Below, piece by piece: positions 8,063 through 28,803 of a stretch of 37,227 nucleotides of DNA. Each line of letters opens with the position of its first letter. Position 1 is the first letter of the stretch. Origin of the DNA: a virus. Under the pieces are notes generated by a model. The model ran no database searches. It was not told the origin of the DNA and worked only from the letters and a program-made list of their open reading frames with translations. The translations under genes and the position numbers were made by a program. Where the stretch lies: IMG/VR virus record IMGVR_UViG_3300029955_000077; one strand, given 5' to 3'.

Positions 8063-8136
8063 GCCTCCATCGGCAACTGGATAGTCAACATCGCTTCGAA
8101 CGATGATTAGTGTAAGATCGTACCTTACTGGGGGCA
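8063..8136 (+). tRNA. tRNA-Arg (anticodon UCG)
   Basis: Acceptor GCCTCCA/TGGGGGC, anticodon stem CATCG/CGATG with loop CTTCGAA, T-loop ATCGTAC (A at position 54), CCA encoded. Confidence 0.5.
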
Positions 8137-8144
8137 CCAAGTTT

Positions 8145-8372
8145 ATGAAGATTAATTTTCGAGGACAAATGGTCGAAGATAGGTCTGGTATAGACGAAGA
8201 TAAACAGTATCGTTGTACCGATTGTGGGAAGGTGACATTTGGTAAAGATTTATCTTTAGTTTCTTACCAAACTTCAATGGAAGTAAGGGGAGAACTTGTT
8301 CCTACAGGAGAAATGGTAATTAACACTCGTCTGTGTCCCGAAGATAGAGGACATGTAGTAGAAGAGATTTGA
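8145..8372 (+). CDS. zinc-ribbon protein (75 aa)
   Basis: ATG after the tRNA (the track ORF starts inside the tRNA). Motif CTDCGK...CPEDRGH. Confidence 0.45.
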   Translation: MKINFRGQMVEDRSGIDEDKQYRCTDCGKVTFGKDLSLVSYQTSMEVRGELVPTGEMVINTRLCPEDRGHVVEEI

Positions 8373-8376
8373 TTTT

Positions 8377-8460
8377 TGTGGAGTAAACCGTAATTGGCAG
8401 CGGGCTGCACTGTTAATGCAGTGTCGTAAGACTCTGGGGGTTCGAGACCCTCCTCCACAG
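8377..8460 (+). tRNA. type-II (long variable arm) tRNA with anticodon GUU. The body is Tyr-like but the anticodon is that of Asn.
   Basis: 84 nt. Acceptor TGTGGAG/CTCCACA, anticodon stem CTGCA/TGCAG with loop CTGTTAA, 14-nt variable arm with a GTC/GAC mini-stem, T-arm GGGGG-TTCGAGA-CCCTC, CCA encoded. Confidence 0.5.
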
Positions 8461-8469
8461 CCAAATTTT

Positions 8470-8559
8470 AGCGCTCCGGTAGAACAGGTGGGTCTTCAAC
8501 TCCCTTAGCTAGTTCATCGGTAAACACTCTTCGGGGTTGAAGCCGGGAGTAGCAGCGCT
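8470..8559 (+). ncRNA. long imperfect hairpin, possibly a structured RNA element
   Basis: AGCGCT...AGCGCT bracket an inner CTTCAAC(T)CCC / GGGGTTGAAG stem, followed by AAAAATTTTTA. Confidence 0.2.
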
Positions 8560-8681
8560 AAAAATTTTTATTGGGACGTAGGAAAACCGGCAACCCCACT
8601 GGGTTCTGACCCCAGCGACCAATTTGGTCACTGCATGTTCAAATCATGCCGTCCCAGCCAAAAATGATATTTAACGATTAT

Positions 8682-8753
8682 TCCTGCGTAGCTCAGGGGC
8701 AGAGCGAACGGCTGTTAACCGTTTGGTCGGTGGTTCGAATCCATCCGCAGGAG
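8682..8753 (+). tRNA. tRNA-Asn (anticodon GUU)
   Basis: Acceptor TCCTGCG/CGCAGGA, D-arm GCTC-AGGGGCA-GAGC, anticodon stem AACGG/CCGTT with loop CTGTTAA, T-arm GGTGG-TTCGAAT-CCATC, CCA encoded. Confidence 0.75.
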
Positions 8754-8834
8754 CCAAATTTGGGTCAGGAGGTCGGCGGTCTCGTACCCGATCTTCCCGT
8801 ATACTGTACGCCTTCGGGCTACAGGCAGATGACG

Positions 8835-8872
8835 GGTGTAGCTCAGTAGTAGAGCACCTGATCTAATTTACT
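8835..8872 (+). pseudogene. tRNA 5' fragment (acceptor and D-arm only)
   Basis: GGGTGTA-GCTC-AGTAGTA-GAGC resembles the 5' half of the following tRNA-like gene. No matching 3' half follows. Confidence 0.3.
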
Positions 8873-8960
8873 TTGAGCGAGTTACGTGGAAGGCAACTTT
8901 GTTCATGGAGGGCAACGACCAAAGCGACTCGCTCAATAAGTTTTGAAGTTTGAAGTCATG

Positions 8961-9031
8961 ATACACGTAGCTCAATTGGTAGAGCAGCGCCATTAACGGC
9001 GCTGATGTGGGTTCGATCCCCACCGTGAGGA
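8961..9031 (+). tRNA. tRNA-like gene or pseudo-tRNA with an atypical anticodon loop
   Basis: D-arm GCTC-AATTGGTA-GAGC, T-arm GTGGG-TTCGATC-CCCAC. The anticodon stem GCGCC/GGCGC encloses a 6-nt loop ATTAAC. The acceptor pairs weakly (ATACACG/CGTGAGG) and no CCA is encoded. Confidence 0.3.
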
Positions 9032-9111
9032 AGGCTTCTTGGGAGAAGATAGACACTTGATCAGTGGACCGTTTCGTGAAATCCTTCAATCCCACCGGTT
9101 TTAGAAAGTTT

Positions 9112-9184
9112 GCGTTGGTAGCTCAATTGGCGGAGCACTCGACTCTTAATCGATAGGCTGTGGGATCGTTGCCCACCCAGCGCA
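9112..9184 (+). tRNA. tRNA-Lys (anticodon CUU)
   Basis: Acceptor GCGTTGG/CCAGCGC, D-arm GCTC-AATTGGCG-GAGC, anticodon loop CTCTTAA, T-arm GTGGG-ATCGTTG-CCCAC, CCA encoded. Confidence 0.6.
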
Positions 9185-9228
9185 CCAAGATTTAGGAATT
9201 GATTATAAGCCAGTAAGCGTGTATTATT

Positions 9229-9381
9229 ATGATTGACCCAAATCATCTCTACACTTTGCATCAGACATACACAGGAACTGATTGTGCTTTGTGCGGGAAG
9301 CCAGCGACAGAGCATCCATTAGAGTATTGGATGATTAACGGTAAACAACAAGAATTAGTTAGAATTCATATTGGGGAATGA
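9229..9381 (+). CDS. small CxxC protein (50 aa)
   Basis: ATG ORF with CALCG. Its 3' end overlaps tRNA-Phe by 9 nt. Confidence 0.25.
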   Translation: MIDPNHLYTLHQTYTGTDCALCGKPATEHPLEYWMINGKQQELVRIHIGE

Positions 9382-9445
9382 GCTAGTAGGGTTATAGCGT
9401 TCCGCTGAAGACGGAAAGAATCCAGTTCAACTCTGGGATTCCCCA
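9373..9445 (+). tRNA. tRNA-Phe (anticodon GAA)
   Basis: Acceptor GGGGAAT/ATTCCCC, D-arm GCTA-GTAGGGTTA-TAGC, anticodon stem TTCCG/CGGAA with loop CTGAAGA, T-arm TCCAG-TTCAACT-CTGGG, CCA encoded. Confidence 0.7.
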
Positions 9446-9545
9446 CCAAATTTAAAAAGGAGAAGTAAAATGAACTACATGAATTTAAAACAGGAGGTAC
9501 AAAATATGCATACTCATTAAGATACTGCAAAGGAGCGGTAGAACT

Positions 9546-10361
9546 ATGCGCCCAGACATGGCCAAACTCCTCACTGAAGCTGAGAGGTACGGTTCAAAAA
9601 ACCGATCTCAGAAGTGGGGTAAGCGGTTCAAATATAACCCTGATTCGGACTACGATGATCAACCATATCGTGCTTCGATGTCCCGACATCGGCAAGATGA
9701 CTGCGGGAAAAACCTTAGCGATGTACTCAACCCATTAAAGGGTTATCTCCACAAAAGCGTGGGACGCCATTGGGATGATGTCTACAGTGAAATTTGTCAA
9801 AACCTTGATCGTCGTAGTGTAACTGGATTACATGTATTCACTCATCTTTGGCAATTCGTAGCCAAAAATACTGTGATGTGCATTGACGGAAAGGTACGAG
9901 AATGGGCCGGTGGTGGCGGCTATTTGACTGAGCCCTATAATTATTATATCCACCCATATACCGGGATTTTGTGCGACAGTGGGTACAGCGGATGGCGCGA
10001 ATGGCGGCGCAGCAATCGCACCAGGAAAGAAAAGCCCGTCACCGAGATTCGACTTTCGGACATCGGGCGTTACGAGAAGTTCGACGGCATCTGGTACTAC
10101 TGCGAGAACTACGCTATCAAGCACGAGGGCAAGACGCTGATTCGTCCGGGCTATTTCCGGGTCAATGACGCCATCAAGATCGATGGCGAAGTCAACGAGG
10201 AAGGCGAGCCCTTGGTTTTTTACTTAATCAAATGGACTGAGCACATCAGCACGAAACGCCAGCTTAACCGGAAAGAACTGAAAAAAGCAGGATTGAAAAA
10301 TGACCCTCCGAATCCTAAAGCTTTCAGCAGACGGGAACGAAAGGCTTTGGAGAGAAAGTAA
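9546..10361 (+). CDS. hypothetical protein (271 aa) with a compositionally mosaic C-terminal half
   Basis: Long ORF. The segment at roughly 9960-10215 is markedly more GC-rich than the N-terminal half. Confidence 0.6.
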   Translation: MRPDMAKLLTEAERYGSKNRSQKWGKRFKYNPDSDYDDQPYRASMSRHRQDDCGKNLSDVLNPLKGYLHKSVGRHWDDVYSEICQNLDRRSVTGLHVFTHLWQFVAKNTVMCIDGKVREWAGGGGYLTEPYNYYIHPYTGILCDSGYSGWREWRRSNRTRKEKPVTEIRLSDIGRYEKFDGIWYYCENYAIKHEGKTLIRPGYFRVNDAIKIDGEVNEEGEPLVFYLIKWTEHISTKRQLNRKELKKAGLKNDPPNPKAFSRRERKALERK

Positions 10362-10430
10362 GTATTAGGGGGTATGAGCAGAATGCAAAATGTTTTAGGC
10401 TTTTAGACTCCTTAGAAAGGAAGGTAAATT

Positions 10431-10976
10431 ATGGCAGACACTTTAATTCTTGACCAAAACTGGCAACCACAGTCTTTTTGTAACTGGCAGAACGCTGTGA
10501 AATTGATATATGAAGGGCGTGCTCAAGTTATCAAAGAAGACGAGGGTGGGCGCATTTTACGGTCTCCTTCTCTGGAATGGAAGATGCCAAGGGTTATTGT
10601 TGTCAAAAACGCTTGGGTTCGTAGGAAGCGTTTGTCCGTTCCTTTCTCCAGACGCAACATCGCGGTTAGGGATAATAGCGGGTGTCAGTACTGCGGTAGG
10701 GTATTGAAGACTCAGGAATATACTCTTGACCACGTAATGCCTCGTTCTCAAGGTGGTGTATCTTCATGGACCAATTTGGTGCTCGCCTGTGTGCGCTGCA
10801 ACAAGCGTAAGGCCGGTCAGACACCTAAGGAAGCTGGCATGCACTTACTTAAGCAGCCCGTGGAGCCGAAGAAGGACGATCCGAAGTACAACTTCAAGCT
10901 TCACATTAACAAGCTACGGCCAGAATGGAAAGAGTGGGAAACCTGGCTATATTGGAATGTGGAACTAGAAGCGTAG
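10431..10976 (+). CDS. HNH endonuclease (McrA-like)
   Basis: GGAAGG Shine-Dalgarno site. Motif CQYCG...LDHVMPRSQGG...NLVLACVRCNKRK. Confidence 0.8.
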   Translation: MADTLILDQNWQPQSFCNWQNAVKLIYEGRAQVIKEDEGGRILRSPSLEWKMPRVIVVKNAWVRRKRLSVPFSRRNIAVRDNSGCQYCGRVLKTQEYTLDHVMPRSQGGVSSWTNLVLACVRCNKRKAGQTPKEAGMHLLKQPVEPKKDDPKYNFKLHINKLRPEWKEWETWLYWNVELEA

Positions 10977-11074
10977 AAGCTTTGACACGATCCTTTACGT
11001 GTCACATCTGGTCCCGGATGTGCTGACCCAGCTTAAAGGGTAGGGACTACCAATTTATGAACGGAAGTTGAGCC

Positions 11075-11148
11075 ATCCTCGTACCGGCCTCGTTTCCTAA
11101 ACGAGTAACCGTAAAGGAGCAATGTGGGTTCGAGTCCCACCGAGGATA
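11075..11148 (+). tRNA. tRNA-like element with a CCU anticodon-like hairpin and no canonical D-arm
   Basis: 74 nt. Perfect acceptor ATCCTCG/CGAGGAT, T-arm GTGGG-TTCGAGT-CCCAC, CCA encoded. A CTCGT-TTCCTAA-ACGAG hairpin sits where the D-arm should be, followed by an 18-nt extra segment. Confidence 0.3.
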
Positions 11149-11158
11149 CCAGGTTTTT

Positions 11159-11333
11159 ATGTACATCAAATGCAGCATATTCGATGTGGATTTGGATCAT
11201 GTATTTGATGAGCTGCTTTTGCAGTTGACAGAAATAACACTTCCTGATACACTGGAACTTGATGATCGAAAGATAGATAATCAAGAAGATTATAAACTAC
11301 GAGAGTATTTATTGAAGGCTACAAAATAAGCAT
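11159..11333 (+). CDS. possible small acidic protein (58 aa)
   Basis: ATG ORF whose stop lies inside the start of the dispersed repeat. The Shine-Dalgarno site is weak. Confidence 0.2.
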
Positions 11334-11547
11334 TGAAGGTCTTGCGAAAACCAAGCTGGCTAAATCAATGCTGGATGTTGCATTCGGGAAATAAGAATTA
11401 AGAATTCTCGACGCCTTGGGATACATGGAGTCGTTAAACGACTGCGGACAGTGTGTAAGTCTGGCGAAAGCCAGCAGCGCTGGTTGAAACAGTTAAGGGC
11501 GGCGTTAGCCGCCTAGAATCTCCCGCCTTTAGGCGTGGGAGTATCAA
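11314..11547 (+). repeat. dispersed structured repeat, copy 1 (234 bp)
   Basis: About 85-90% identical to 36408-36620, with two small insertions. It contains conserved hairpins GTCG-TTAAA-CGAC and GGCGGC-loop-GCCGCC. Confidence 0.8.
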
Positions 11548-11631
11548 TATGATGGTAATTCTTAACAACACGCTCACCACGCTTCACCTCAGACCTAAAC
11601 GCTAAATTTCCGCGTTCAAAAATCTCTAAAT

Positions 11632-11703
11632 GCCTCTATCGTCCAACTGGAAGGGCACCGGCCTTCTAAGCCGTGGATCCGGGTTCAAGTCCTGGTGGAG
11701 GTA
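11632..11703 (+). tRNA. tRNA-Arg (anticodon UCU)
   Basis: Acceptor GCCTCTA/TGGAGGT, D-arm GTCC-AACTGGAA-GGGC, anticodon loop CTTCTAA, T-arm CCGGG-TTCAAGT-CCTGG, CCA encoded. Confidence 0.65.
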
Positions 11704-11717
11704 CCAAAAATTTTAAT

Positions 11718-11790
11718 GCCCCCGTAGCTCAGTTGGTAGAGCCACCGCCTTTTAAGCGGAGGGTCGCTGGATCGTTCCCGGCCGGGGGTA
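11718..11790 (+). tRNA. tRNA-Lys (anticodon UUU), copy 1
   Basis: Acceptor GCCCCCG/CGGGGGT, D-arm GCTC-AGTTGGTA-GAGC, anticodon loop CTTTTAA, T-arm GCTGG-ATCGTTC-CCGGC, CCA encoded. Confidence 0.65.
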
Positions 11791-11799
11791 CCAAACTTT

Positions 11800-11872
11800 G
11801 GGTGTATCGTCTAATGGCTAAGACCCCGATCTTTTAAATCGGCCGATTTCGGTTCGAGTCCGAATGCACCCA
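11800..11872 (+). tRNA. tRNA-Lys (anticodon UUU), copy 2
   Basis: Acceptor GGGTGTA/TGCACCC, D-arm GTCT-AATGGCTA-AGAC, anticodon stem CCGAT/ATCGG with loop CTTTTAA, T-arm TTCGG-TTCGAGT-CCGAA, CCA encoded. Confidence 0.7.
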
Positions 11873-11961
11873 CCAAATATTCTACTTGACAAATTCCCTT
11901 AAAACCTCTTAAAGTAAAAATAGGTAACCGAAACCTCGTCAGACCAACCGGAGATGTTTTA

Positions 11962-12473: not shown

Positions 12474-13790
12474 ATGATGAAAAAAGAAATGACCCTTTTG
12501 GGTCTAGTCGCCGCTACGTATTTTATGGTAAGCGGAGGCCCGTACGGTCTAGAAGACCTAATTGCTCAAACTGGTTACGGATGGGGAATACTCATTCTTT
12601 GCTTAGTGCCCTTCCTGTGGGCACTGCCAACCGCTATGATGGTTGGTGAACTCGCCTCTGCGATACCGAATCGCGGGGGTTTTTATATTTGGGTGCAACG
12701 TGCCCTTGGAAAATTTTGGGGATTCCAGGAAGCTTGGCTTTCATTAGCGGCTTCCATATTTGATATGGGAATCTACCCGCTACTTTTTATTTCTTACCTG
12801 GGTGTATTGGCTCCAAGTTTCACCGCAGGGTGGCACGGCTCGCTTATAGCAACGGCTCTAATCGCTGTTTGCGTATTGTGGAACCTTCGGGGTGCCAAAG
12901 CTGTAGGAAACGGCTCTGTGGCGTTAGGAGCCCTTATGGTGAGCCCTTTTGTGATTATCACCCTAGCAGCTCTCCGACACGCCCATCTGACCCATGTTAC
13001 GGGTCATCCTCACGCCGTCAGTCTTATGGGCGGTATTATGGTCGCTATGTGGAACTTCATGGGTTGGGATAACGCCAGCACCATAGCCACAGAAGTCAAA
13101 AAACCTCAACGAACCTACCCCATCGCCATGATGGTGACTATGCTGTTGATTGTTGGAAGCTATATTCTCCCCGTAGCAGCGTCTTGGTATCTGGGAGTAC
13201 CCCTGTCTGCCTGGTCAACAGGGAGTTGGGCGACTATTGGTGAAATCATCGCGGGTTCTTGGGTACGAGACGCCATTGTACTGGGTGGAATGATCAGTGC
13301 AGCGGGGATGTTGAACTCCCTCATGATGAGCTATTCTCGTATTCCCCCAGCGCTGGCTGAAGATCATTATCTGCCTCGCATATTCACAAAAATAAATGCA
13401 GTGTCAGTTCCCATGATAGCTTTATTTGCCTTGGCGACAGTTTGGGCAACAGCGTTCGGTTTGAATTTTGACCGTCTGGTGATGCTGGATATTTTACTTT
13501 ATGGAACGAGTCTTATTCTGGAGTTTATCGCTTTAGTGGTATTGCGTTGGAAAGAACCAGATTTGCCTCGACCTTTTCGTGTGCCTGGGGGAAAATTGGG
13601 CGCTATCTTGGTAGGAGTTTGCCCAACGATACTTCTCTTCGCGGCCGGTATTTTTGGGGATCATAACGGACTATTGCTAGGCTTAGGCATGATTCTATCC
13701 GGGGTGGGTGCTTGGTGTGGAATTCATGGATTTCGTGCCGCTAAATATGAAAAAATCGCTCCCACTTTCTCAACTACCACGATCCCCTAA
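12474..13790 (+). CDS. APC-family amino-acid/polyamine permease (about 12 transmembrane segments)
   Basis: Hydrophobic throughout. The GGPYGLE and GELASAIPNRGGFYIWVQRALG motifs are typical of APC transporters. AAAGG Shine-Dalgarno site. Confidence 0.75.
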   Translation: MMKKEMTLLGLVAATYFMVSGGPYGLEDLIAQTGYGWGILILCLVPFLWALPTAMMVGELASAIPNRGGFYIWVQRALGKFWGFQEAWLSLAASIFDMGIYPLLFISYLGVLAPSFTAGWHGSLIATALIAVCVLWNLRGAKAVGNGSVALGALMVSPFVIITLAALRHAHLTHVTGHPHAVSLMGGIMVAMWNFMGWDNASTIATEVKKPQRTYPIAMMVTMLLIVGSYILPVAASWYLGVPLSAWSTGSWATIGEIIAGSWVRDAIVLGGMISAAGMLNSLMMSYSRIPPALAEDHYLPRIFTKINAVSVPMIALFALATVWATAFGLNFDRLVMLDILLYGTSLILEFIALVVLRWKEPDLPRPFRVPGGKLGAILVGVCPTILLFAAGIFGDHNGLLLGLGMILSGVGAWCGIHGFRAAKYEKIAPTFSTTTIP

Positions 13791-14110: not shown

Positions 14111-14164
14111 CAACTTTTTTGCTGCTTGGGTGTTATAATAGTGTTAAAGAGTAAGGAGACAATT

Positions 14165-14632
14165 ATGCGTAAATCATTGTTTTGGCTGTTTTCAACCTTC
14201 CTATTTTTCACTCTCCCTGTGTATGCTCAGCATTCCACTGGCGGTTCTCATGGTGGCGGTGGGACTCATGGTGGCTCACAGCATGGCGGTAATGTGCATG
14301 CAGGGGGTGCTGTACACCAAGGAGTGCAACAACGCTCTGCTCATTCTAGGATTTCCCGCGGGCATTTCCATAACGGAAGATTTGATCATGGTTACTTCGC
14401 GGGTCATTGGGGAGCTGGCAATCCCTTTTTCTGGGGTGAATGCCGTTGGTGGGGTCCACGATTCGGCATAGGTAGCTGGTTCTGGTACAATGATGCCTAC
14501 TTTGTGATTTTGGAGCCTATTCCATCCGACTGGTACGATGATGAAGTGTATGTAGATGAATACGATGGCGGATATGTTCTAGTAAATCCAATGTACCCCG
14601 GAGTACATTTCGGTGTTAGAGTAAGATTATAA
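14165..14632 (+). CDS. secreted His/Gly-rich protein (signal peptide plus GxHGG repeats and a Trp-rich C-terminus)
   Basis: AGGAG Shine-Dalgarno site 8 nt upstream. N-terminus MRKSLFWLFSTFLFFTLPVYA-Q looks like a signal peptide, followed by GGSHGGGGTHGGSQHGGNVHAGG. Confidence 0.6.
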   Translation: MRKSLFWLFSTFLFFTLPVYAQHSTGGSHGGGGTHGGSQHGGNVHAGGAVHQGVQQRSAHSRISRGHFHNGRFDHGYFAGHWGAGNPFFWGECRWWGPRFGIGSWFWYNDAYFVILEPIPSDWYDDEVYVDEYDGGYVLVNPMYPGVHFGVRVRL

Positions 14633-14664: not shown

Positions 14665-14694
14665 GAGGGGCTATATCTTAGCCCCTTTATTTTA
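14665..14694 (+). terminator. rho-independent terminator
   Basis: AGGGGC-loop-GCCCCT followed by TTATTTTAT. Confidence 0.55.
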
Positions 14695-15047
14695 TGCTTA
14701 CTGAAGAAATTCGAGTTTTCAATTCCGATATTCAAACTTACTATTATCTTCACATTCGTAAAGATAGAGTACAGGCTTTTTATAGCCTTATAGCACAAGA
14801 ACGACACCCAGCACGGGTTTCCTCCATGCCTGGGTTAAGCTGGGCTGCTATCTCTGGTTTGGATGCTATTTTTGAACGCCGACCTTTAAAATTTCCCGTC
14901 TACGATATCTTACATTGGTTTTGTGATAACGCCCTTACTTACGCCCCACAATTTGATCCTCCACTTACCCAAGCGGAAATAGAACATGCTTTAGAGCGAT
15001 TCGCAACTCTATATCCCCCTGATGTTTTAACTGAGAATAGAGTATGA
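14694..15047 (+). CDS. hypothetical protein (117 aa)
   Basis: ATG ORF. Confidence 0.45.
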   Translation: MLTEEIRVFNSDIQTYYYLHIRKDRVQAFYSLIAQERHPARVSSMPGLSWAAISGLDAIFERRPLKFPVYDILHWFCDNALTYAPQFDPPLTQAEIEHALERFATLYPPDVLTENRV

Positions 15048-15553
15048 ACTATCAAAATAAACTTCAAAAAATACAAAAAGAGTTTGTGCTGGGAATAAAA
15101 GATAAATTCACCTGTATGACTAAATTTGAGCAAGTTTTATGGGAATACGGTCTTCTACCAAAACAAGAAGAGTTAGATAGGGAAATGTCTAATGAACATT
15201 TTTCTCGCTTGATACAAATGGCTATGGAACATACAGATACTCATTCAGATCGAGATCCTGAAAATAGTGAAGAATTGGATAATGAATACGCAGCGGCTTT
15301 TTATTCTGTAAGAGTTTGCCCAATTTGTCATATTACGCAATCCCGTCCATTAGTTGGTAGCGTGAGTGATTTAGCTCGAAAAATAACTGCATTAAACCCT
15401 CCTCGTTGTGAACGCTGCGCCATTGATTGGATGAAAAAACATCTAGAGAATTCCCCAAAAGGTGAAAATGTAGATTTGATAAAACCACTTAGCAAAGAAG
15501 AGAAAAAATTTTTTGATGAGTATGAGAAGGAAATGGAAGACTTTGAGGTTTAG
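15044..15553 (+). CDS. hypothetical protein with a C-terminal CxxC...CxxC zinc-binding motif
   Basis: ATGA overlap with the upstream gene. Motif CPICH...CERC. Confidence 0.5.
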   Translation: MNYQNKLQKIQKEFVLGIKDKFTCMTKFEQVLWEYGLLPKQEELDREMSNEHFSRLIQMAMEHTDTHSDRDPENSEELDNEYAAAFYSVRVCPICHITQSRPLVGSVSDLARKITALNPPRCERCAIDWMKKHLENSPKGENVDLIKPLSKEEKKFFDEYEKEMEDFEV

Positions 15554-15777
15554 TGGTATTATTATGGTATATGAATATGAATTTCACTGGATTCATGCAA
15601 GTCATTCCTAAGCCCACGCACTGGTGGCGGCGTCCACACCAAATACATTTTTCTTTGTGGCCAGCTTGGCTAGCTCAAGCATTATGCCCGCATAAAGTCA
15701 AAACTTATTTCACTGATGATCAATGGCGCTGTGATGATTGTTTCAAATTCAATTTCCATCAAAAGGAAGACAAATAA
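15553..15777 (+). CDS. hypothetical small Cys/His protein (74 aa)
   Basis: ORF whose stop overlaps the next start in a TAATG arrangement. Confidence 0.4.
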   Translation: MVLLWYMNMNFTGFMQVIPKPTHWWRRPHQIHFSLWPAWLAQALCPHKVKTYFTDDQWRCDDCFKFNFHQKEDK

Positions 15778-16871
15778 TGATTCACTCCCTTATTTCGGTT
15801 ACAGAATCTACATCAATAGAAAGACGAAAAAATAATGTTATAGGTGCAGTTTTTGGACAAGCCATTGGCGATGCTATAGGACATCCGGTGGAGTTTAAAA
15901 AAACTCATTATGTTGTAGACCTAGATATCCCCAATCAATTTACAGATGACACACAAATGTTTTGTGCTTTGGGTGAGGCGTTAATTGAAGGGAAACCCCA
16001 TGAAATGGAAGATGTATTCATGGATGTTCTTACTAAGAAGTTTGTTGAATGGCGTACAAATCCTTTAGGCGGTAATCATCGTGCTCCAGGGGGTACTTGT
16101 ATGGAAGGAGTTCGAAAATTAGGTGCAAAAGTTCCTTGGACAAAATCTGGAGCTCTAAATGGTAAAGGTAATGGAACGGCGATGCGTAGCGGTGTCGTAG
16201 GGGCGATGTACTGGAAGAATCCTAATTATGCTTTTCGTATAGGAGCTTTGCAAAGCGTCAACACCCACAATAATCTAGAAGCGATATTAGGCGGGGGAAC
16301 AGTTTCTTATCTTGTAGCAGCGGCTATTAATGGTATGAGGTTTTCTATCGCCATATCAAATGTTTTGATGCTCTGTTCTCAATTTCTTAATCCATCTGTT
16401 ATAGCTACTTATCCTCAAAATGTAGCATTCAATGATCTGCGTAAAGGTCAGAGTCCGTGGAAAACCGTAGCAAAATTCGGCTCCGCATTTGCGTTGGGTA
16501 TCTCAGATATACAGGTCGGTGAATTCGCTAAATTCAATGGAGATGATTTTTCTGTAGTGCCAGCGGTATCCGCCGCTATTTTTTACAATACTAGATTCGC
16601 AAATTCAGGTTATGAACAAACAGTGTTAAACGCCGCCAATTTTGGAGATGACGCGGATACTATAGCAGCTATTAGTGGGACTATCGCCGGAGCTAGACAC
16701 GGCGTGGATGGTATACCTACATCATGGGTAGAGAATATCGAACAAAGTGAGTACCTCAGGGATTTCTCAGACCGTTTATGGGAAGCCAGTCTTGCCGCAA
16801 ATGTAACTGTTGATAATGAAACTCCAGTTGACACGGATAGTCTACTGGATATGGATGAAATCGAATTTTAA
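15777..16871 (+). CDS. ADP-ribosylglycohydrolase (ARH/DraG family)
   Basis: AAGGAAGA Shine-Dalgarno site. Motifs GAVFGQAIGDAIGHPVEF, TDDTQM and GDDADTIAAISGTIAGARHG match the ARH-family hallmark motifs. Confidence 0.8.
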   Translation: MIHSLISVTESTSIERRKNNVIGAVFGQAIGDAIGHPVEFKKTHYVVDLDIPNQFTDDTQMFCALGEALIEGKPHEMEDVFMDVLTKKFVEWRTNPLGGNHRAPGGTCMEGVRKLGAKVPWTKSGALNGKGNGTAMRSGVVGAMYWKNPNYAFRIGALQSVNTHNNLEAILGGGTVSYLVAAAINGMRFSIAISNVLMLCSQFLNPSVIATYPQNVAFNDLRKGQSPWKTVAKFGSAFALGISDIQVGEFAKFNGDDFSVVPAVSAAIFYNTRFANSGYEQTVLNAANFGDDADTIAAISGTIAGARHGVDGIPTSWVENIEQSEYLRDFSDRLWEASLAANVTVDNETPVDTDSLLDMDEIEF

Positions 16872-16881
16872 GGAGATAATT

Positions 16882-17604
16882 ATGATCAGCCCACTTCCGG
16901 AAATGCTTGAAACTTTAGGGAAAATGCTAGCACCTGGGATGACAGGAAAATTTCTTGACAGCTTTGCCGCCAATCTCTGCAAACTTCACGATGTAAAGCC
17001 AGCTTTCTTGGGGTATAAACCCCCCAATTTTAGCGGCAAAGAAGGGTTCCCCAATACAATTTGTGTCTCCATAAATGATGAAGTAATTCATGGTATCCCA
17101 TCGGATAGGAAATTTGAGGAAGGAGATGTTATAAAACTTGATATGGGAATCGAGAAAGACGGGGAGTTTGACGATGGAGCGATTACCGTACTTTGTGGTA
17201 CAGTAGATGATGAAGGGCGCATACAAGGGTGCTCTGCGACCGCTAGGAAGCTTGTAGCAGCGACTAAGGAAGCTCTTGCCGCTGGGGTGCAGCAAGCCAA
17301 GGCAGGGAACACAACCCACGATATCGCCAAGGCTGTGGAGACGGTAGCTAAAAATCATGATCTTCATGTAGTTCATGGTTATGGAGGACACGGTATTGGA
17401 AATCAACTACACATGGAACCTCATATCCCGAATGAAGAAGATGGGTCAATCGCAAAAAAATTGGAGTCCGGAACCAGGGTAGCGATCGAACCCATGCTGG
17501 CTACAAATCATGGATTTACTTATGTAGCAGCTGATGGTTGGACGGTAAAGCTTCGTAACGGAGGACTGGCCGCTCATTTTGAGCAGACGGTAGAGATAAA
17601 ATAA
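16882..17604 (+). CDS. map: methionine aminopeptidase, type I
   Basis: AAGGAG site 8 nt before the ATG. Motifs FPNTICVSINDEVIHGIP, GDVIKLDMG, HGYGGHGIG, IEPML and a WT..T.DG...A.FE.T C-terminus match MetAP. Confidence 0.8.
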   Translation: MISPLPEMLETLGKMLAPGMTGKFLDSFAANLCKLHDVKPAFLGYKPPNFSGKEGFPNTICVSINDEVIHGIPSDRKFEEGDVIKLDMGIEKDGEFDDGAITVLCGTVDDEGRIQGCSATARKLVAATKEALAAGVQQAKAGNTTHDIAKAVETVAKNHDLHVVHGYGGHGIGNQLHMEPHIPNEEDGSIAKKLESGTRVAIEPMLATNHGFTYVAADGWTVKLRNGGLAAHFEQTVEIK

Positions 17605-17605
17605 G

Positions 17606-17818
17606 ATGCGTAGTTGTCAATTTGTGGGCTGTGAGAAGGATGCCAAGCACTGGTTTCCTCCTAGTGAGAGTAAGAGATGGGTAAAAGGAATGTGGGTATG
17701 TTCATCTTGTTACGACAAAATAGCCAGTCATTTTAAAGAGTGTTTTAATGGTATAGGTACTGATGGTCAAATAAGTAGAGTAAGAAAATACATTAACAAA
17801 TACGGACTGAGGCTTTGA
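17606..17818 (+). CDS. small Cys-rich protein (70 aa)
   Basis: ATG 2 nt after the MetAP stop. Motif CQFVGC...CSSC. Confidence 0.45.
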   Translation: MRSCQFVGCEKDAKHWFPPSESKRWVKGMWVCSSCYDKIASHFKECFNGIGTDGQISRVRKYINKYGLRL

Positions 17819-17857
17819 TGCTTACCTGCCCGCCAAGTAATAATACTGGATTTTTGG

Positions 17858-18112
17858 ATGAATAACGACGGTGAGAAGCCGCACAAGTGTGATTTCTGGG
17901 GCGAGTATTCCGTCATGGTCTGCAACGAACCAGCACCGTACAAGATGACCTACGTCGATGCTGATATCCAAGTCTGGAAAGCTGACTGGTACTGTAAGCA
18001 CCATTACGAAATCATGGCGGATGTCATTATGAAAGATCGCGACAACAACTCCCGCCAACGCCGTCGAATTGACAGGATGTTGGAGATTAACAATTGGTTT
18101 CAGCATGAATGA
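17858..18112 (+). CDS. hypothetical protein (84 aa)
   Basis: ATG ORF in a GC-rich patch. Confidence 0.45.
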   Translation: MNNDGEKPHKCDFWGEYSVMVCNEPAPYKMTYVDADIQVWKADWYCKHHYEIMADVIMKDRDNNSRQRRRIDRMLEINNWFQHE

Positions 18113-18143
18113 AATGACAAGTTAGTGGAAGAAGAAGGCGCAA

Positions 18144-18629
18144 ATGAAGAGAATTAGCGACGAGAGCGGCGAATCGGCGGGTTGGCGCAATTGGGGACGG
18201 TTGATGTTGTCGCTGATTCCCGCTGCGCTCGGCGGTGCAGCAGTGCTATGGATAATTGCTGGGTTAGGATGGATCGACTTAACCAAAGAGCTACGCATGG
18301 AACGGCGGACTATGCAAAGCGTTGGAATCAGTGTCCTCCCAAAAACACCAATTCAGCTACTTGCGCATGACGGAACATGCCTCAAGATTCAATCATCCTA
18401 CATGGATGGTGACCGTCTTCAATTTTATGCTTTCAACTCTTGCCGCCACTGGCTTTTCAACCCGGCTTTCTACTATCGCGTTAAGGCGCACGATGGCACG
18501 GTTGTGGACAGCCACGAGTGGGCTTTCGATGGGGACAGGGATTTAGGGCCACAGGAACGTAGAGAACAAGTCATTAATCTGGAAAATGATGACAGAGCAG
18601 AACAGGTGGAATTGTGGATGCGAAGGTAG
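18144..18629 (+). CDS. hypothetical membrane-anchored protein (161 aa)
   Basis: Predicted transmembrane segment LMLSLIPAALGGAAVLWIIAGLGWI. Confidence 0.5.
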   Translation: MKRISDESGESAGWRNWGRLMLSLIPAALGGAAVLWIIAGLGWIDLTKELRMERRTMQSVGISVLPKTPIQLLAHDGTCLKIQSSYMDGDRLQFYAFNSCRHWLFNPAFYYRVKAHDGTVVDSHEWAFDGDRDLGPQERREQVINLENDDRAEQVELWMRR

Positions 18630-19148: not shown

Positions 19149-19333
19149 ATCTAATATAATTCTGAAACGTGCTCTCCCGTAGGGACAGATGTAAGTTTGG
19201 GTTATGGTTGGTAACTGAAGAAGGGTCATAGGCAAAATCTCCTCTGGACTCAGTATTTGATAAAGTGGGCAAATAAATTGCCCTTACTATCTAAAGGGGT
19301 GTATAGATAGAAAAATAAGGATAATTGATTATT

Positions 19334-20857
19334 ATGGCAAGCGAAAATGATGGTAATGTTGTACTCAAACGTATATTTGGAATGCTGGCTGACAAGGTTC
19401 GCATCTATCAAATTTTAGAAGAAACTGAAGTGCAACGAGACGAATTTGTTTACTGTCAAATTATGCATCAAATTGTTTTTGGTGAAAACGGTTTTACAAA
19501 AACATTAGGGCATGTTTGGGGTATGGTACATGACCCCCGTTTCCAGGAAATAGAAAATTTAATGATTGTAGATCGCCACGCTATTTTCGGTGGTGATGCT
19601 CGATTAGGTAAGCAATACATAAATGACGATGGAACTTTTACTTCTCCTATATCTGATCTGGAGAAGTATTCTGAGATTGTTGGTGAAGGAAGGAATTTTC
19701 ATAATGTTCTTACTCACCCCGATGAAAAATGTCCTCAACGGTTGTGGTTAGAACGAATTCATCGCGGCTTTACAAACATTAAACCTCACTCCACTCTTCA
19801 ATGTATTTGTGCTACCGGTAAAGAAAATCCCACTACATTTAAAGATATGCCCGATGAAATTATATGGGCATTGATTAAGCAAGAATGCCCCAATCGTGGG
19901 TTCAATGCTGACAAAACTCCCAATGCCTACGGTCAATTGATGTATGATCTTATTCGAGCGGATATTATCGGACTTATTCATGATTATGCGGAGACTCCTT
20001 TGATTGACAGTTATGTTTATTTAAGAGATAACGGCATTATTAAGTACACAGAAACAGAATCCGTAGCTTCAATAGACCCGTTTGGTTTAGAAAATCCCAG
20101 AGTTCTTCAAGAACTAGATATATTGGAACAGGCCCTTACTCACCGTGCTACTTTGCGAATGACGGCCTTAAAAATTCTCAAAAAAGCAGGGCTACAAAAT
20201 GAAATCCGTGAGGCTGATTTAACGGATATAGAACGGGATGAATTGTTATGTTTAATATACAGTCATGATTACCCTGATGTTGAAAATACAGATAGTACGA
20301 TGTACAGAGCTGCAATAGATGCTTGGGAAAAACAAATTAAAGAAATTGTTAAAGACTATATTTTATCGGTAATTACAAAAGATTTGAAGGAACGTGAAAC
20401 CGTTCAATTGAATCAATTACAATTAGAGTCTAACGAAGCTGTAGATGGTCTGATGAAAGGAACAATTCAACCTATTAATTCTTACACCGAACCTACGGTA
20501 GAAATTCCTACTGAGCAAGAAGAATCGGAAGTTGTTAAATATGCTCGTATGCTGGAAGCTATTATGGGGAACGAGTTCAAATCCGAACTTTATCTTTTGT
20601 TGATTGAAGCAGAAAGACAAAAAAATACGGCTATTGTAGATTTGTTAACTCCAATATTTCTTACTCCAGATTACCCTTTAGATGAAAAGATTTTTTATAA
20701 TTTCATTGAAAGTATTAGAATAGGTAGTAGAAGTCTGCGAGCGGATCGTCTGGAGGCGATTCGAGGTACGAAGCAAACCGGAATGAACTTAGATCCTGCT
20801 AAGACTACGCAAATCGATGAAGAGTTTCACAGCAAGGATTCACCATTTAGAGGTTAA
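19334..20857 (+). CDS. hypothetical protein (about 507 aa)
   Basis: Long ORF with AAGGA upstream. No recognisable motifs. Confidence 0.6.
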   Translation: MASENDGNVVLKRIFGMLADKVRIYQILEETEVQRDEFVYCQIMHQIVFGENGFTKTLGHVWGMVHDPRFQEIENLMIVDRHAIFGGDARLGKQYINDDGTFTSPISDLEKYSEIVGEGRNFHNVLTHPDEKCPQRLWLERIHRGFTNIKPHSTLQCICATGKENPTTFKDMPDEIIWALIKQECPNRGFNADKTPNAYGQLMYDLIRADIIGLIHDYAETPLIDSYVYLRDNGIIKYTETESVASIDPFGLENPRVLQELDILEQALTHRATLRMTALKILKKAGLQNEIREADLTDIERDELLCLIYSHDYPDVENTDSTMYRAAIDAWEKQIKEIVKDYILSVITKDLKERETVQLNQLQLESNEAVDGLMKGTIQPINSYTEPTVEIPTEQEESEVVKYARMLEAIMGNEFKSELYLLLIEAERQKNTAIVDLLTPIFLTPDYPLDEKIFYNFIESIRIGSRSLRADRLEAIRGTKQTGMNLDPAKTTQIDEEFHSKDSPFRG

Positions 20858-26512: not shown

Positions 26513-26815
26513 ATGAGATTTTCTTATGACGAAGACGCAGATGTGATGTATATCCGCTTCTCAGAGTCGTCCTCTACCACATCATACTTAGAGAATGACA
26601 ATGGAGACATCCTCCGCTTCGACGAAGCAACTGAGAAACTTGTAGGCGTTACTATCCCTTGGTTCAAGGAAAGAATTCTTAAGGGAGACATTTTAGATAT
26701 TCCAGAAATCGAGGCAATTCCATTTGGTTCGGACATGAGAAAGTTGATAAACTCTAGAACGGTACGATCAAAAAATTCGGCCCTACTAAAGCCGGAGAAT
26801 GAGATTGATTTATGA
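26513..26815 (+). CDS. DUF2283-like small protein
   Basis: N-terminal MRFSYDEDADVMYIRF matches the DUF2283 signature. Confidence 0.5.
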   Translation: MRFSYDEDADVMYIRFSESSSTTSYLENDNGDILRFDEATEKLVGVTIPWFKERILKGDILDIPEIEAIPFGSDMRKLINSRTVRSKNSALLKPENEIDL

Positions 26816-27009
26816 CATTTGAAATCGATCCACCGGAACCATGCCCTGATTGCGGCAGCACACACCATCGCAGCTGCACAATGAGTGGTGTTGGCCCTGA
26901 ATTAGACATAATTCTTGACCCAGATCCTAAATGTGAGTTTTGTCACGGAACAGGGCGGATTTACGCCCTGATCAATGTGCGGTGTTCTTGCACCTATGGA
27001 AATGAATGA
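26812..27009 (+). CDS. zinc-ribbon protein (65 aa)
   Basis: ATGA overlap. Motifs CPDCG and CEFCHGTG. Confidence 0.45.
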   Translation: MTFEIDPPEPCPDCGSTHHRSCTMSGVGPELDIILDPDPKCEFCHGTGRIYALINVRCSCTYGNE

Positions 27010-27096
27010 ATTCGCCGCGCAAAGCAATTCTAGACCCCCTTTTTATACCCATCATCAATACCTGTGGCGCTGCTTTGAAAGGCAGTATTACAGCTT

Positions 27097-27912
27097 ATGT
27101 CCAACTACTACAACGAATACGAACCGCATGCAGCCGCTTGGTTGCGAAATTTAATCAGCGCGGGTCTGTTGCCAAAAGGGGATGTTGATGAACGAAGCAT
27201 TACAGATGTTACAACTAGCGACCTCGCAGGATACACCCAATGTCACTTCTTCGCCGGGATCGGCGGATGGTCCGTCGCCCTCCAGATCGCAGGAGTGCCA
27301 GACGACTACCCAATCTGGACAGGGAGCTGCCCCTGTCAACCCTTCAGCGCCGCACCTGGAGAACGAAAAGGTACTGCCGATAAACGTCACCTCTGGCCTG
27401 TCTGGTCAGGGCTCATCCGCGAGTGTCGCCCTGCAATTTGCTTTGGAGAACAAGTTGAGGCAGCTATTAGGTACGGATGGCTCGATATTGTATCGGCAGA
27501 CTTGGAAGATCAAGGCTACGCCGTCGGGGCGGCGATACTTGGCGCTTGTAGCGTCGGCGCTCCCCACAAGCGACAACGGCTATATTGGGTGGCCGACTCC
27601 CAACGCGTCCCAGCACAATTACTACGAGAACCCGGACGGATGGTTAGCGAGACAGGAACAGCGGAAAAAGGACGGCAAGCAGACGTTCGCGATCAACTTG
27701 GGAATAGCGGCGAAGTTCACTTCTGGGACAGCCCTGAGTGGCTCGCCTGTAGAGACGGGCGACAAAGACCATGTGAACCCGGAGTTAGCCCGCTGGCTAA
27801 TGGGATTCCCAACCGGGTGGACAAATTACGCGCCTACGGGAACTCGATCTGCCCTCCGCTCGCCTCGAAATTCATTCAAGCGGTCCTTGAAGCGAAAGAA
27901 GAAATCCAATGA
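27097..27912 (+). CDS. DNA (cytosine-5)-methyltransferase
   Basis: Motif I FFAGIGGW, motif IV PCQPFS and motif X AYGNSI. The gene lies in a GC-rich patch. Confidence 0.8.
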   Translation: MSNYYNEYEPHAAAWLRNLISAGLLPKGDVDERSITDVTTSDLAGYTQCHFFAGIGGWSVALQIAGVPDDYPIWTGSCPCQPFSAAPGERKGTADKRHLWPVWSGLIRECRPAICFGEQVEAAIRYGWLDIVSADLEDQGYAVGAAILGACSVGAPHKRQRLYWVADSQRVPAQLLREPGRMVSETGTAEKGRQADVRDQLGNSGEVHFWDSPEWLACRDGRQRPCEPGVSPLANGIPNRVDKLRAYGNSICPPLASKFIQAVLEAKEEIQ

Positions 27913-28364: not shown

Positions 28365-28378
28365 TCAAAGGATAAAAA

Positions 28379-28738: not shown

Positions 28739-28803
28739 CCCTGCGAGAGCAGCATTCAAAGCGAACGCTACGCAAGGCAGCACGCACTGGATGCTTAGCC
28801 GCT

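Follow-up and report, generated by a model that had tools for sequence, protein, structure and literature searches.

Among the described ADP-ribosylglycohydrolases of the ARH/DraG superfamily, the best sequence and fold matches of the phage enzyme considered here are Tri1 (PDB 6DRE) and Lmo0067 (PDB 8ZA7), which provide immunity to ART toxins. They share with it an all-helical fold, the GDAxG...E, TDDT, and DDADT motifs, and a similar size (profile E values of 1e-23 and 8e-20; Foldseek E values of ~2-3e-11 with TM scores of 0.68-0.69), but the phage ARH is only 21-22% identical to them, has no ART toxin gene next to it, and bears an acidic ΦE[VI]EF tail of its own. DraG and the human and Latimeria ARH3 proteins also resemble the phage ARH in fold and in having a binuclear metal site, but are 17-22% identical to it, and it occurs without their nitrogenase or PARP/HPF1 context; as judged from these comparisons, their substrate specificity cannot be transferred to it. 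About 5% of jumbo phages reportedly have ARG/ARH domains, for which a preference for macromolecular conjugates has been argued (PMC9503650). The ARHs of jumbo phages (Salmonella phages Munch and PHA46) and actinophages are likewise stand-alone phage genes belonging to PHROG 6572, but the best full-length GenBank phage match is only ~27% identical to the protein described here, and no close relative (>40% identity) was retrieved from among 50,697 deposited phage records.

The product of the neighboring gene is a type I methionine aminopeptidase (MetAP). Peptide deformylase (PDF), which acts immediately before MetAP, is carried by cyanophages (PMC3660681) and huge phages (PMC7162821); it belongs to a different enzyme family but follows the same logic, namely, a phage copy of a cotranslational N-terminal processing enzyme. 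Described phages hardly ever have MetAP, the enzyme that comes next: it goes unmentioned in the main text of the huge-phage survey (PMC7162821), we found no phage entry for it in BFVD, and we found only about 21 mostly dubious instances among the 50,697 GenBank phage records. An annotated type I methionyl aminopeptidase is present in a bona fide phage, the 98.7-kb Vibrio phage V6Aob (PV454620.1), but it is of full length (267 aa), shares 26% identity with the MetAP reported here, and falls outside its clade. On the host side, a point mutation in metAP arrests cos-type Streptococcus phages at a late step (PMC6761271). A host MetAP that is a proven host factor for some phages and a MetAP owned by a phage together suggest that excision of the N-terminal Met is a bottleneck or vulnerability in infection.

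We analyzed a 37,227-nt stretch of viral DNA (IMG/VR record IMGVR_UViG_3300029955_000077; hereinafter, the window) for which an initial annotation, drawn from the sequence alone, had described an ARH/DraG-family hydrolase translationally coupled to a type I MetAP. Both ORFs lie on the plus strand exactly where they had been placed, with the ARH (364 aa) running from the ATG at 15777 to the TAA ending at 16871 and, after a 10-nt spacer, the MetAP (240 aa) from the ATG at 16882 to the TAA ending at 17604. Our preferred reading, to which we give a probability of about 60%, is that they are two independent auxiliary enzymes whose genes share a polycistronic message in a huge phage of the ~430-460 kb class from soil or peat.

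The two genes do not stand apart as a special unit but are part of a series of plus-strand genes, each overlapping or closely following the one before, that spans 14694-17818. In the gap ahead of this gene chain is a terminator-like hairpin (14665..14687, plus strand; GAGGGGCT...AGCCCCTT followed by a T-run) that probably represents the end of the upstream transcription unit. It was the only sensibly placed site in a promoter and terminator consensus scan of the region, in which site counts were not above the shuffled expectation, and it precedes the whole chain. The first gene of the chain, up117 (14694..15047; 117 aa), has no Pfam or PHROG match and has homologues of 37-55% identity in the related loci L004, L007, L009, L012, L022, L098, and L100 and of 29-43% identity in L183 and L184. 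It overlaps by 4 nt with up169 (15044..15553), which codes for a Cys-rich, zinc-ribbon-like protein of 169 aa with an acidic C terminus (...EKEMEDFEV). Next is up74 (15577..15777), coding for a small Cys-containing protein, whose start is probably the ATG at 15577, as suggested by the N termini of its homologues, rather than the GTG at 15553 where the mechanical ORF begins. The stop codon of up74 overlaps the ARH start by 1 nt (TAATG), and the same gene is directly upstream of the ARH in L019, L020, L098, and L100. On the other side, a single nucleotide separates the MetAP stop codon from the start of dn70 (17606..17818), a Cys-rich 70-aa ORF that extends the chain and has weak homologues in L098 and L099 only.

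A Shine-Dalgarno-like AAGGAAG (15763..15769, plus strand) is situated 7 nt ahead of the ARH start codon. The AAGGAG ribosome-binding site that had been noted for the MetAP gene is indeed found at 16870..16875 (plus strand), where its first two bases are also the end of the ARH stop codon (16869-16871), and it lies 6 nt ahead of the MetAP ATG. Within the ARH-MetAP gap, the consensus scan yielded no convincing promoter or terminator, and the 10-nt spacing, with a Shine-Dalgarno sequence overlapping the stop codon, has its like in the tight spacing at most junctions of the chain. This junction anatomy makes cotranscription and coupled translation of the two genes plausible: a ribosome terminating at the ARH stop codon would sit on the MetAP Shine-Dalgarno sequence and could reinitiate 10 nt downstream. 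The alternative starts at TTG 15738 and TTG 16810 were dropped, as the lengths and N termini of homologues fit the ATGs at 15777 and 16882, and the minus-strand ORFs within both genes (e.g., 16927-17406) were set aside as spurious, given the strong profile support for the plus-strand frames.

The wider setting differs from that first proposed, in which the pair lay within the tRNA-rich region. The tRNAs occupy 7017-11875, and the ARH begins 3.9 kb downstream of the last of them, beyond an amino-acid permease and five other ORFs; an Rfam scan of the whole window recovered tRNAs only. A Ku gene is found 4-4.5 kb downstream both here and in L004. The window yielded no PDF. A megablast search of 15000-18200 against GenBank phages gave no match, and the GC and GC3 of the ARH and MetAP genes are inside the range of the other window genes.

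The affiliation of the first protein with the ARH/DraG superfamily was upheld by a search with the Pfam model ADP_ribosyl_GH (PF03747; E value of 3.7e-50; 171.6 bits against a cutoff of 26.2), which aligned over positions 1-286 of 287, and by its assignment to PHROG 6572. Its AlphaFold2 model (pLDDT of 91.5) is an all-α fold that Foldseek matches with a probability of 1.0 to Lmo0067, Tri1, MJ1187, DraG, and ARH3 and that gives TM scores of 0.61-0.71 to 8ZA7, 6DRE, 1T5J, 2WOC, and the ARH3 entries. The motifs read off initially are all present, namely, GDAIG (residues 31-35), TDDT (residues 56-59), and GDDADTIAAISGTIAG (residues 290-305). The first metal-binding motif, T56-D57-D58-T59 (15942..15953, plus strand), and the second, the DxDT motif D292-A-D294-T295 (16650..16661, plus strand), are invariant, together with T163 and H164, in 32 clade members of 41-66% identity. 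The former aligns with the same motif of the solved ARHs Tri1, MJ1187, and Lmo0067, and the latter aligns with GDDADS of Tri1 and GGDTDS of MJ1187. E39, the glutamate following GDAxG, is at least 90% conserved in the same alignment and aligns with the conserved Glu of GDAxGxxxE in Tri1, MJ1187, and Lmo0067; we take it to be the equivalent of E28 of DraG and E41 of ARH3. The TH motif of ARHs has been described previously (PMC9503650). With its metal-site and catalytic residues complete, the phage ARH looks catalytically competent. Its model is equally similar (TM scores of 0.6-0.7; 17-22% identity) to the arginine-specific (Tri1 and DraG), serine/PAR-specific (ARH3), and small-molecule (MJ1187) members of the superfamily, and it scores below the cutoffs of the equivalog models for both Tri1 (NF041672; 93 versus 490 bits) and DraG (TIGR02662; 78 versus 337 bits).

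The MetAP is retrieved by the Pfam Peptidase_M24 model with an E value of 2.9e-32, and its placement in type I is borne out by TIGR00500 (204.2 bits against a cutoff of 171.35), the type II model TIGR00501 remaining below its cutoff (74.5 versus 222.65 bits). The five metal ligands D87, D98, H170, E203, and E234, which align with D97, D108, H171, E204, and E235 of the E. coli enzyme, are invariant across the clade, as are H70, H177, C61, and W220 (H79, H178, C70, and W221 of E. coli). The E. coli sequence in this alignment agrees with the literature numbering. The AlphaFold2 model (pLDDT of 95.5) shows the pita-bread fold and superimposes on E. coli MetAP structures with a TM score of 0.87 and an rmsd of 1.3-1.4 Å. 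On these grounds, the enzyme looks catalytically competent. In both proteins, then, the catalytic residues proved intact and the profiles matched, the points on which the initial annotation had staked its family assignments beforehand.

Like the bacterial type Ia enzymes, E. coli Map and T. maritima TM1478, to which it is 28-35% identical, the phage MetAP keeps the five ligands, both catalytic histidines, and several pocket residues and has neither the type II insert nor the eukaryotic N-terminal extension. Unlike them, it starts 15-20 residues later, stops short of the last β-hairpin, and has two inserts specific to its clade, PPNFSGKEG and a stretch of ~9-10 aa after VLCGT. The TIGR00500 match accordingly spans profile positions 21-236 of 247, and the ~15-20 N-terminal and ~10-12 C-terminal residues that are missing are kept by all 73 of the nearest cellular MetAPs. 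At the C terminus, only 3-5 aa follow the last ligand motif (the E235 equivalent) in 117 of 120 clade members, whereas each of those 73 cellular proteins continues for at least 12 more residues, so that the trimmed form was not seen in any of the 73 nearest cellular genomes examined. From its profile and alignment, this "mini" MetAP is still a member of the type I family, with the canonical architecture incomplete, and the trimming may mean altered activity, partners, or specificity.

Both proteins have relatives on IMG/VR viral contigs of 231-456 kb and on metagenome contigs of up to 458 kb, each of the two occurring on contigs of up to 454-458 kb, in keeping with the phage-like character of the window; these contigs also carry rIIB, Ku, HNH, and tRNA arrays. 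IMG/VR locus searches with the single proteins gave one MetAP locus and next to nothing for the ARH, and alignment-based searches were needed. Identity among the ARH relatives falls from at least 40% (75 clusters) to 35% or less. The MetAP clade is 49-94% identical to the window protein, and the best retrieved cellular MetAP, in a search covering 185,579 species of bacteria and archaea with one genome apiece, reaches 44%. The alignments indicate that both proteins have been under long-term purifying selection in phage-specific clades.

Comparison of gene neighborhoods revealed a conserved block with the order up117-up169-up74-[slot]-MetAP-p510-Ku. MetAP is a fixed member of this block and the ARH an accessory gene in the variable slot just upstream of it. 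The ARH is directly upstream of MetAP in the window, L004, L019, L027, and L100, with overlaps of 26 nt in L004 and 1 nt in L100, and is separated from it by a 52-aa ORF in L098 and L099. In L009/L010, L012, L022, and L023, MetAP is instead 1.5-2.1 kb upstream of the ARH, and L001, L005, and L101 have an ARH with no MetAP nearby, the gene in L001 and L101 being beside clamp-loader genes and far from MetAP. Conversely, the MetAP block is found without an ARH in L007, where an HNH-like ORF fills the slot, and in L183 and L184, where the slot is occupied by a 77-84-aa zinc-ribbon ORF. Of the related loci, L100 encodes a 458-aa WGR-PARP, with candidate H-Y-E residues recognized by eye, 3.3 kb upstream of the ARH; L004 and L183 have a Tpt1/KptA within the block; and the ARH of L001 and L101 is near a NUDIX (weak Pfam match) and a Metallophos gene.

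The ARH ends in an acidic C-terminal tail (residues 341-364; 16797..16868, plus strand) that appears disordered in the AlphaFold2 model (pLDDT of 48-69) and terminates in ...LLDMDEIEF-COOH. Its terminal motif, [DE][DE]ΦE[VI]EF, is specific to the clade: it is present in 48 of 75 close ARH relatives, with roughly 5 more near-variants recognized by eye, and in none of the 45 distant ARH homologues checked (35% identity or less). Among 2,912 ORFs of the related loci, 14 of the 16 proteins matching the motif are ARHs. We considered whether the tail tracks adjacency to MetAP and rejected this, as it is present in L001 and L101 with no MetAP nearby and absent from L009 with one close. The tail presumably resembles the C-terminal tips of bacterial SSB (DDDIPF) and T7 gp2.5 and the T4-type clamp-binding tails. 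Its conservation, disorder, and this resemblance are what suggest a docking peptide.

In the preferred reading of two independent enzymes, the dinuclear center of the MetAP (D87, D98, H170, E203, and E234, with H70 and H177) would cleave the initiator Met from nascent or newly made proteins with a small second residue, and with a MetAP of its own the phage would itself be able to process N termini while proteins are made in massive amounts late in infection. The initial suggestion that the phage reinforces N-terminal processing is reasonable in light of phage PDFs and the dependence of some phages on host MetAP, but the further suggestion that it rewires translation goes beyond the evidence. 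As for the ARH, its two-metal site (T56-D57-D58-T59; D292, D294, and T295; E39; T163-H164) would hydrolyze the linkage at the ribose C1'', freeing ADP-ribose from a macromolecular conjugate, such a substrate being favored by the literature argument noted above and not by properties of this protein, while the tail ending in ΦE[VI]EF-COOH would dock the enzyme at its target or a partner. Its job is most likely the erasure of ADP-ribosylation harmful to phage replication or gene expression.

A narrower proposal, developed from the initial annotation, is that the ARH removes ADP-ribose placed on phage or host macromolecules by the ADP-ribosyltransferases of host defense, with DarT-like enzymes acting on DNA, CmdT-like enzymes acting on mRNA, and toxins acting on translation factors as the envisaged writers, and that MetAP is unrelated cargo. 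We consider this possible but doubtful. A patchy accessory gene in a variable slot is typical of counterdefense, an observation that fits the proposal and does not prove it. No ART, PARP, or Tpt1 Pfam match was obtained among the scanned window ORFs, and an eraser found with no such ADP-ribosyltransferase alongside it points to extrinsic marks (PMC9503650), although the window is 37 kb of a genome of roughly 450 kb and a phage-encoded writer may lie outside it. Phages do carry orphan antitoxin-like erasers against DarTG (PMC11825919, PMC13309987), but the known phage erasers of defensive ADP-ribosylation are macrodomain and NADAR proteins and not ARHs. Moreover, the ARH-like enzymes tested to date reverse nucleic-acid ADP-ribosylation at phosphate ends, reversal at the guanosine base having been found only with NADARs and that at the 2'-OH of RNA only with PARGs. 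No PADLOC-DB model was matched by the ARH, the MetAP, or eight other window proteins; this library covers defense systems and not phage counterdefense genes, so the null result for the ARH says little.

Another reading is that the ARH recycles or limits the marks of the phage's own ART-fold enzymes (WGR-PARP and Tpt1/KptA), e.g., on DNA or RNA phosphate ends in a neighborhood concerned, together with Ku, with nucleic-acid end handling. SCO5809, an ARH-like enzyme, undoes the ADP-ribosylation that a KptA-like enzyme places on RNA phosphate ends (PMC11833690), and the WGR-PARP of L100, the Tpt1/KptA of L004 and L183, and the downstream Ku of the window and L004 are placed as such a role might lead one to expect; the NUDIX or Metallophos products of L001 and L101 could process the released ADP-ribose. 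However, the window is without a PARP or Tpt1 homologue, tblastn searches of it with the L100 PARP and the L004 Tpt1 yielding no match; in 11 other huge-phage contigs with PARP homologues, neither an ARH nor a MetAP lies within 6 kb of these; and the block of L183 has Tpt1 but no ARH. Because of these patterns, the colocation of writers and ARH looks incidental, and we have downgraded this explanation to an unlikely one.

A more specific scenario, which we offer as speculation with low odds, is that the ARH is an eraser tethered to the phage replication/repair machinery, where it would strip ADP-ribose from nucleic acids, the marks being either defensive ones of the DarT type or end caps, while the mini-MetAP, truncated at both ends, is a phage-adapted enzyme that frees the whole phage clade from relying on the host for removal of the N-terminal Met. 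Docking on that machinery is suggested by the resemblance of the tail and by the position of the ARH beside clamp-loader genes in two relatives. If true, this would be the first ARH-family nucleic-acid de-ADP-ribosylase used as phage counterdefense.

The possibility that the ARH and MetAP form a module acting on one target, e.g., the N terminus of an ADP-ribosylation-sensitive protein, appears very improbable, although it would account for translational coupling. The two genes are in direct contact or overlap in the window, L004, and L100, are no more than ~2 kb apart in 10 distinct contig types and in two orders, and, judged by matching sizes, appear to occur together on at least 5 further short contigs (2.4-6.3 kb). 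This repeated nearness in two orders could hint at a link, and we discount it as inherited synteny. Functional pairing is unsupported because MetAP persists without an ARH (L007, L183, and L184) and because order and distance vary, the genes being adjacent, 1.5-2 kb apart in the opposite order, or, as in L001 and L101, unlinked. Moreover, presence of the ARH tail is independent of adjacency, and tight spacing is the norm throughout the junctions of the chain. No biochemical connection of one reaction with the other is known to us, and we found no evidence of the enzymes acting together or on the same substrate. That they are decaying passengers of recent host capture with no phage role, as the ubiquity of both families in bacteria might suggest, we regard as negligible and reject on composition and clade depth, as each falls in a deep clade confined to phages in which the catalytic residues are invariant, and no retrieved cellular MetAP exceeds 44% identity. 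Both genes also have GC and GC3 matching the rest of the window, intact reading frames, and confident structure models.

Neither gene alters current concepts, and the value of the locus is as a well-defined target for biochemistry. In a clade of phages of roughly 450 kb, the MetAP gene belongs to the conserved core, and at 240 aa the enzyme offers a natural minimal MetAP for structure-function work. With the ARH, the small number of phage ARH genes gains a discrete clade that bears a tail, and the terminal peptide provides a concrete handle for a partner search. In L007, the up74 protein carries a fused remnant of this peptide, ...EVEF.

The two ORFs lie on the plus strand at 15777-16871 (ARH, an ADP-ribosylglycohydrolase of the ARH/DraG superfamily; 364 aa) and 16882-17604 (MetAP, a type I methionine aminopeptidase; 240 aa), exactly where the initial annotation had placed them, and every motif that it quoted was found in the sequence. 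Profile searches for both families recovered Pfam ADP_ribosyl_GH for the former (3.7e-50, with profile positions 1-286 of 287 and hence the whole profile covered) and Peptidase_M24 for the latter (2.9e-32).

The relatives of the ARH at identities of at least 40% form 75 clusters (90%-identity clustering), and the next ones are at 35% or less, indicating that they constitute a discrete clade. Alignment of 32 clade members (41-66% identity) revealed the motifs T56-D57-D58-T59, D292-x-D294-T295, and T163-H164 to be invariant and E39 to be nearly so; these residues align with their equivalents in the solved structures of Tri1, MJ1187, and Lmo0067, so that the catalytic residues are present. Together with a confident AlphaFold model (pLDDT 91.5), this pattern of conservation predicts a catalytically competent enzyme. 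The model is about equally similar to all characterized ARH subfamilies (TM 0.61-0.71, 17-22% identity), namely, the ART-toxin immunity proteins, MJ1187, DraG, and ARH3, and the protein scores far below both the Tri1 and DraG equivalog cutoffs; consequently, the substrate class is not readable from its sequence or fold.

Past the catalytic domain, the ARH bears a predicted disordered, acidic linker of variable length that ends in the motif [DE][DE]ΦE[VI]EF-COOH. In the window this tail is encoded by 16797-16868 (residues 341-364) and terminates in LLDMDEIEF. Of the 75 close relatives, 48 carry the motif and about five more have near-variants by eye; 45 distant ARHs and 120 MetAPs all lack it. 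A search of 2,912 ORFs from the related loci gave 16 matches, of which 14 are ARHs; one of the other two is a window ORF with no relation to them (26513-26815), and the second is a deletion remnant found in locus L007. The distribution of the motif points to a new, clade-specific feature. An aromatic residue at the end of a disordered, acidic tail is also the layout of docking peptides like the SSB tip. By this analogy, a lead worth noting is that the ARH tail might serve for docking in the manner of the SSB tip or of clamp-binding peptides.

The MetAP scores 204 bits against TIGR00500, the type I family, versus the NCBI curated cutoff of 171 bits, and comes nowhere near the type II cutoff. 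Its top 120 clusters are 49-94% identical to the window protein and nearly all 228-245 aa long, whereas in a set of 185,579 bacterial and archaeal species, with one genome for each, the best cellular match retrieved is only 44% identical, and cellular matches at about this level are scattered over unrelated phyla. These relationships suggest an old, phage-specific clade. The five metal ligands and the two catalytic histidines of the protein do not vary within the clade and align with D97, D108, H171, E204, E235, H79, and H178 of the Escherichia coli MetAP, on which the window model (pLDDT 95.5) superimposes at 1.4 Å. However, the first 15-20 residues of the canonical type I enzymes are missing, and 117 of 120 clade members end 3-5 residues past the last ligand motif, whereas all 73 of the nearest cellular MetAPs retain at least 12 more C-terminal residues, which form the final β-hairpin. 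The clade also shares two short inserts specific to it. Reference data contain very few phage MetAPs: PHROGs gave only a weak match, BFVD holds no phage MetAP entry but only two giant-virus M24 proteins, and about 21 of 50,697 GenBank phage records match, all at 38% identity or less. Many of these look like bacterial contamination; one clear phage case is the annotated full-length MetAP of V6Aob, a cultured Vibrio phage. The literature searched yielded no publication on a MetAP encoded by a phage.

At the junction of the two genes, an AAGGAG site (16870-16875) overlaps the ARH stop codon (16869-16871), with the MetAP ATG 6 nt further on, an arrangement suited to termination followed by reinitiation. 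This closeness is not peculiar to the pair. Of three conserved genes 5' of the ARH (up117, up169, and up74), the first two overlap by 4 nt and the last base of the up74 stop codon is the first of the ARH ATG (TAATG), while the ORF 3' of the MetAP begins 1 nt past its stop codon. A terminator-like hairpin (14665-14687) lies ahead of the entire gene chain. The proposed placement of the pair inside the tRNA-rich region did not hold, as the tRNA array (7017-11875) ends 3.9 kb upstream and the pair is merely near it.

Comparison with related IMG/VR and metagenome loci revealed a shared block, up117-up169-up74-[slot]-MetAP-...-p510-...-(rIIB)-Ku, in which the slot between up74 and MetAP is variable. 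It is occupied by the ARH in the window and in L004 (with a 26-nt overlap with MetAP), L019, L027, and L100 (1-nt overlap); by the ARH with an extra 52-aa ORF in L098/L099; by a zinc-ribbon ORF of 77-84 aa in L183 and L184; and by an HNH-like ORF in L007. Elsewhere, the MetAP lies 1.5-2.1 kb upstream of the ARH (L009/L010, L012, L022, and L023), or the ARH is found near clamp-loader, NUDIX (a weak match), or Metallophos genes (L001 and L101) or without a MetAP inside the 8-kb flank (L005). These arrangements mark the MetAP as a stable core gene and the ARH as a movable accessory gene. The adjacency is best explained as inherited synteny in a densely packed genome rather than as a sign of joint function. 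In L007 (1726-2420; MetAP 74% identical), the ARH is gone and the HNH-like ORF sits in the gap; the up74 homolog there terminates in FFSEVEF, as though it had been fused to the four final codons of the deleted ARH, a putative "fossil." Of all neighbors, p510 (19325-20857; 510 aa, matching no family) is the most widely conserved, with identities of 38-65% in L004, L007, L009, L012, L022, L098, L100, L183, and L184; in every case its position is downstream of the MetAP or ARH.

We therefore envisage the ARH and MetAP as two independent helper enzymes that would be translated in sequence off one message. By analogy, there is a good rationale for a phage MetAP because peptide deformylase, which acts in the preceding step, is known from huge phages (PMC7162821) and cyanophages (PMC3660681), and some Streptococcus phages are blocked at a late step by a point mutation in host metAP (PMC6761271). 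For the ARH, the evidence leans toward the suggestion of the initial annotation that it could erase ADP-ribose marks made by the host: it behaves as an accessory gene, and no writer gene was found among the window ORFs scanned. A survey of viral NAD/ADP-ribose systems argued that phage ARG domains prefer macromolecular conjugates (PMC9503650). Against an eraser of host marks, the known phage erasers of defensive ADP-ribosylation are macrodomain or NADAR proteins. Alternatively, the ARH might remove the marks of phage-encoded writers. In one relative, L100, a WGR-PARP gene (5361-6737; 458 aa, following a permease, with candidate H-Y-E residues by eye) precedes the ARH by 3.3 kb, two (L004 and L183) have the RNA 2'-phosphotransferase Tpt1/KptA within the block, and ADP-ribosylation of phosphate ends of nucleic acids is reversible by an ARH-like enzyme (PMC11833690). 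However, we rank this model lower because PARP homologs occur on 11 other huge-phage contigs with no ARH nearby. These homologs (L185-L195; 32-61% identity, on IMG/VR contigs of 22-548 kb, including four in the range of 389-548 kb) show that PARP-like writers recur in large-phage contigs, with no local linkage to an ARH in this set. A true two-enzyme ARH/MetAP module is unlikely, as are decaying host passengers; the composition of both genes shows no sign of recent capture.

The initial annotation stands as an observation, with both family assignments upheld, and its interpretation finds partial support. Both genes belong to known kinds: one codes for an ARH that a phage carries on its own, as a stand-alone protein, and the other for a phage version of an enzyme of translation-associated processing. 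Each offers biochemists one variant feature, the terminal peptide of the ARH and the trimming of the MetAP at both ends.

The relatives of the two proteins come from IMG/VR viral genomes of 231-456 kb and metagenome contigs of up to 454-458 kb, sampled from peat, bog, and forest soil, which bear rIIB, Ku, and HNH genes and aminoacyl-tRNA synthetase fragments, indicating that the window is a piece of a huge phage. All sizeable genes of the 37-kb window are on the plus strand, and no DNA-level similarity to GenBank phages was found for the stretch 15000-18200. Recognizable products are a major-vault-protein-like protein, an RlaP nucleotidyltransferase, an HNH endonuclease, an APC-family amino acid permease, Ku, a C5 DNA methylase fragment, endonuclease VII, and an SNF2 helicase; the other window ORFs scanned received no family assignment.

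The tRNA array comprises 15 genes detected by ARAGORN and one more (11075-11148) found by Rfam only. Its five Arg tRNAs supply all CGN anticodons and TCT, two tRNAs are unusually long (Asn, 87 nt; Gln, 89 nt), and the anticodon of the gene at 8961-9031 was not callable by ARAGORN. In relatives, Tpt1/KptA (PTS_2-RNA; L004 6089-6634, L183 5451-5972, and L188 2326-2856) precedes the MetAP/ARH block by 1.4-2 kb, and the window instead has the RNA-repair-associated RlaP (4441-5274); together they hint that RNA repair is a theme of the surroundings of the tRNA array. The permease (12474-13790; AA_permease_2, 7.9e-46) lies between the array and the ARH chain and is 70-74% identical in L098, L099, and L100, where it adjoins seryl- and Trp/Tyr-tRNA synthetase fragments; a transporter kept as a conserved huge-phage gene is unusual. 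The 168-aa ORF at 14126-14632, which matches no family, combines a hydrophobic segment at its N terminus with a repeat region rich in Gly and His (HSTGGSHGGGGTHGGSQHGGNVHAGG); the same position holds the PARP or other cargo in relatives. Also unusual in a phage is the 826-aa protein at 1684-4164, with a major-vault-protein shoulder domain (3.6e-26), a vault repeat (1.8e-08), and no PHROG match. The GC content reaches 0.52-0.54 in an island at 27000-29000 (window mean, 0.44), possibly a mobile insertion, where a partial match to a C5 cytosine methylase (27097-27912) is followed by the gene for endonuclease VII (27909-28364).
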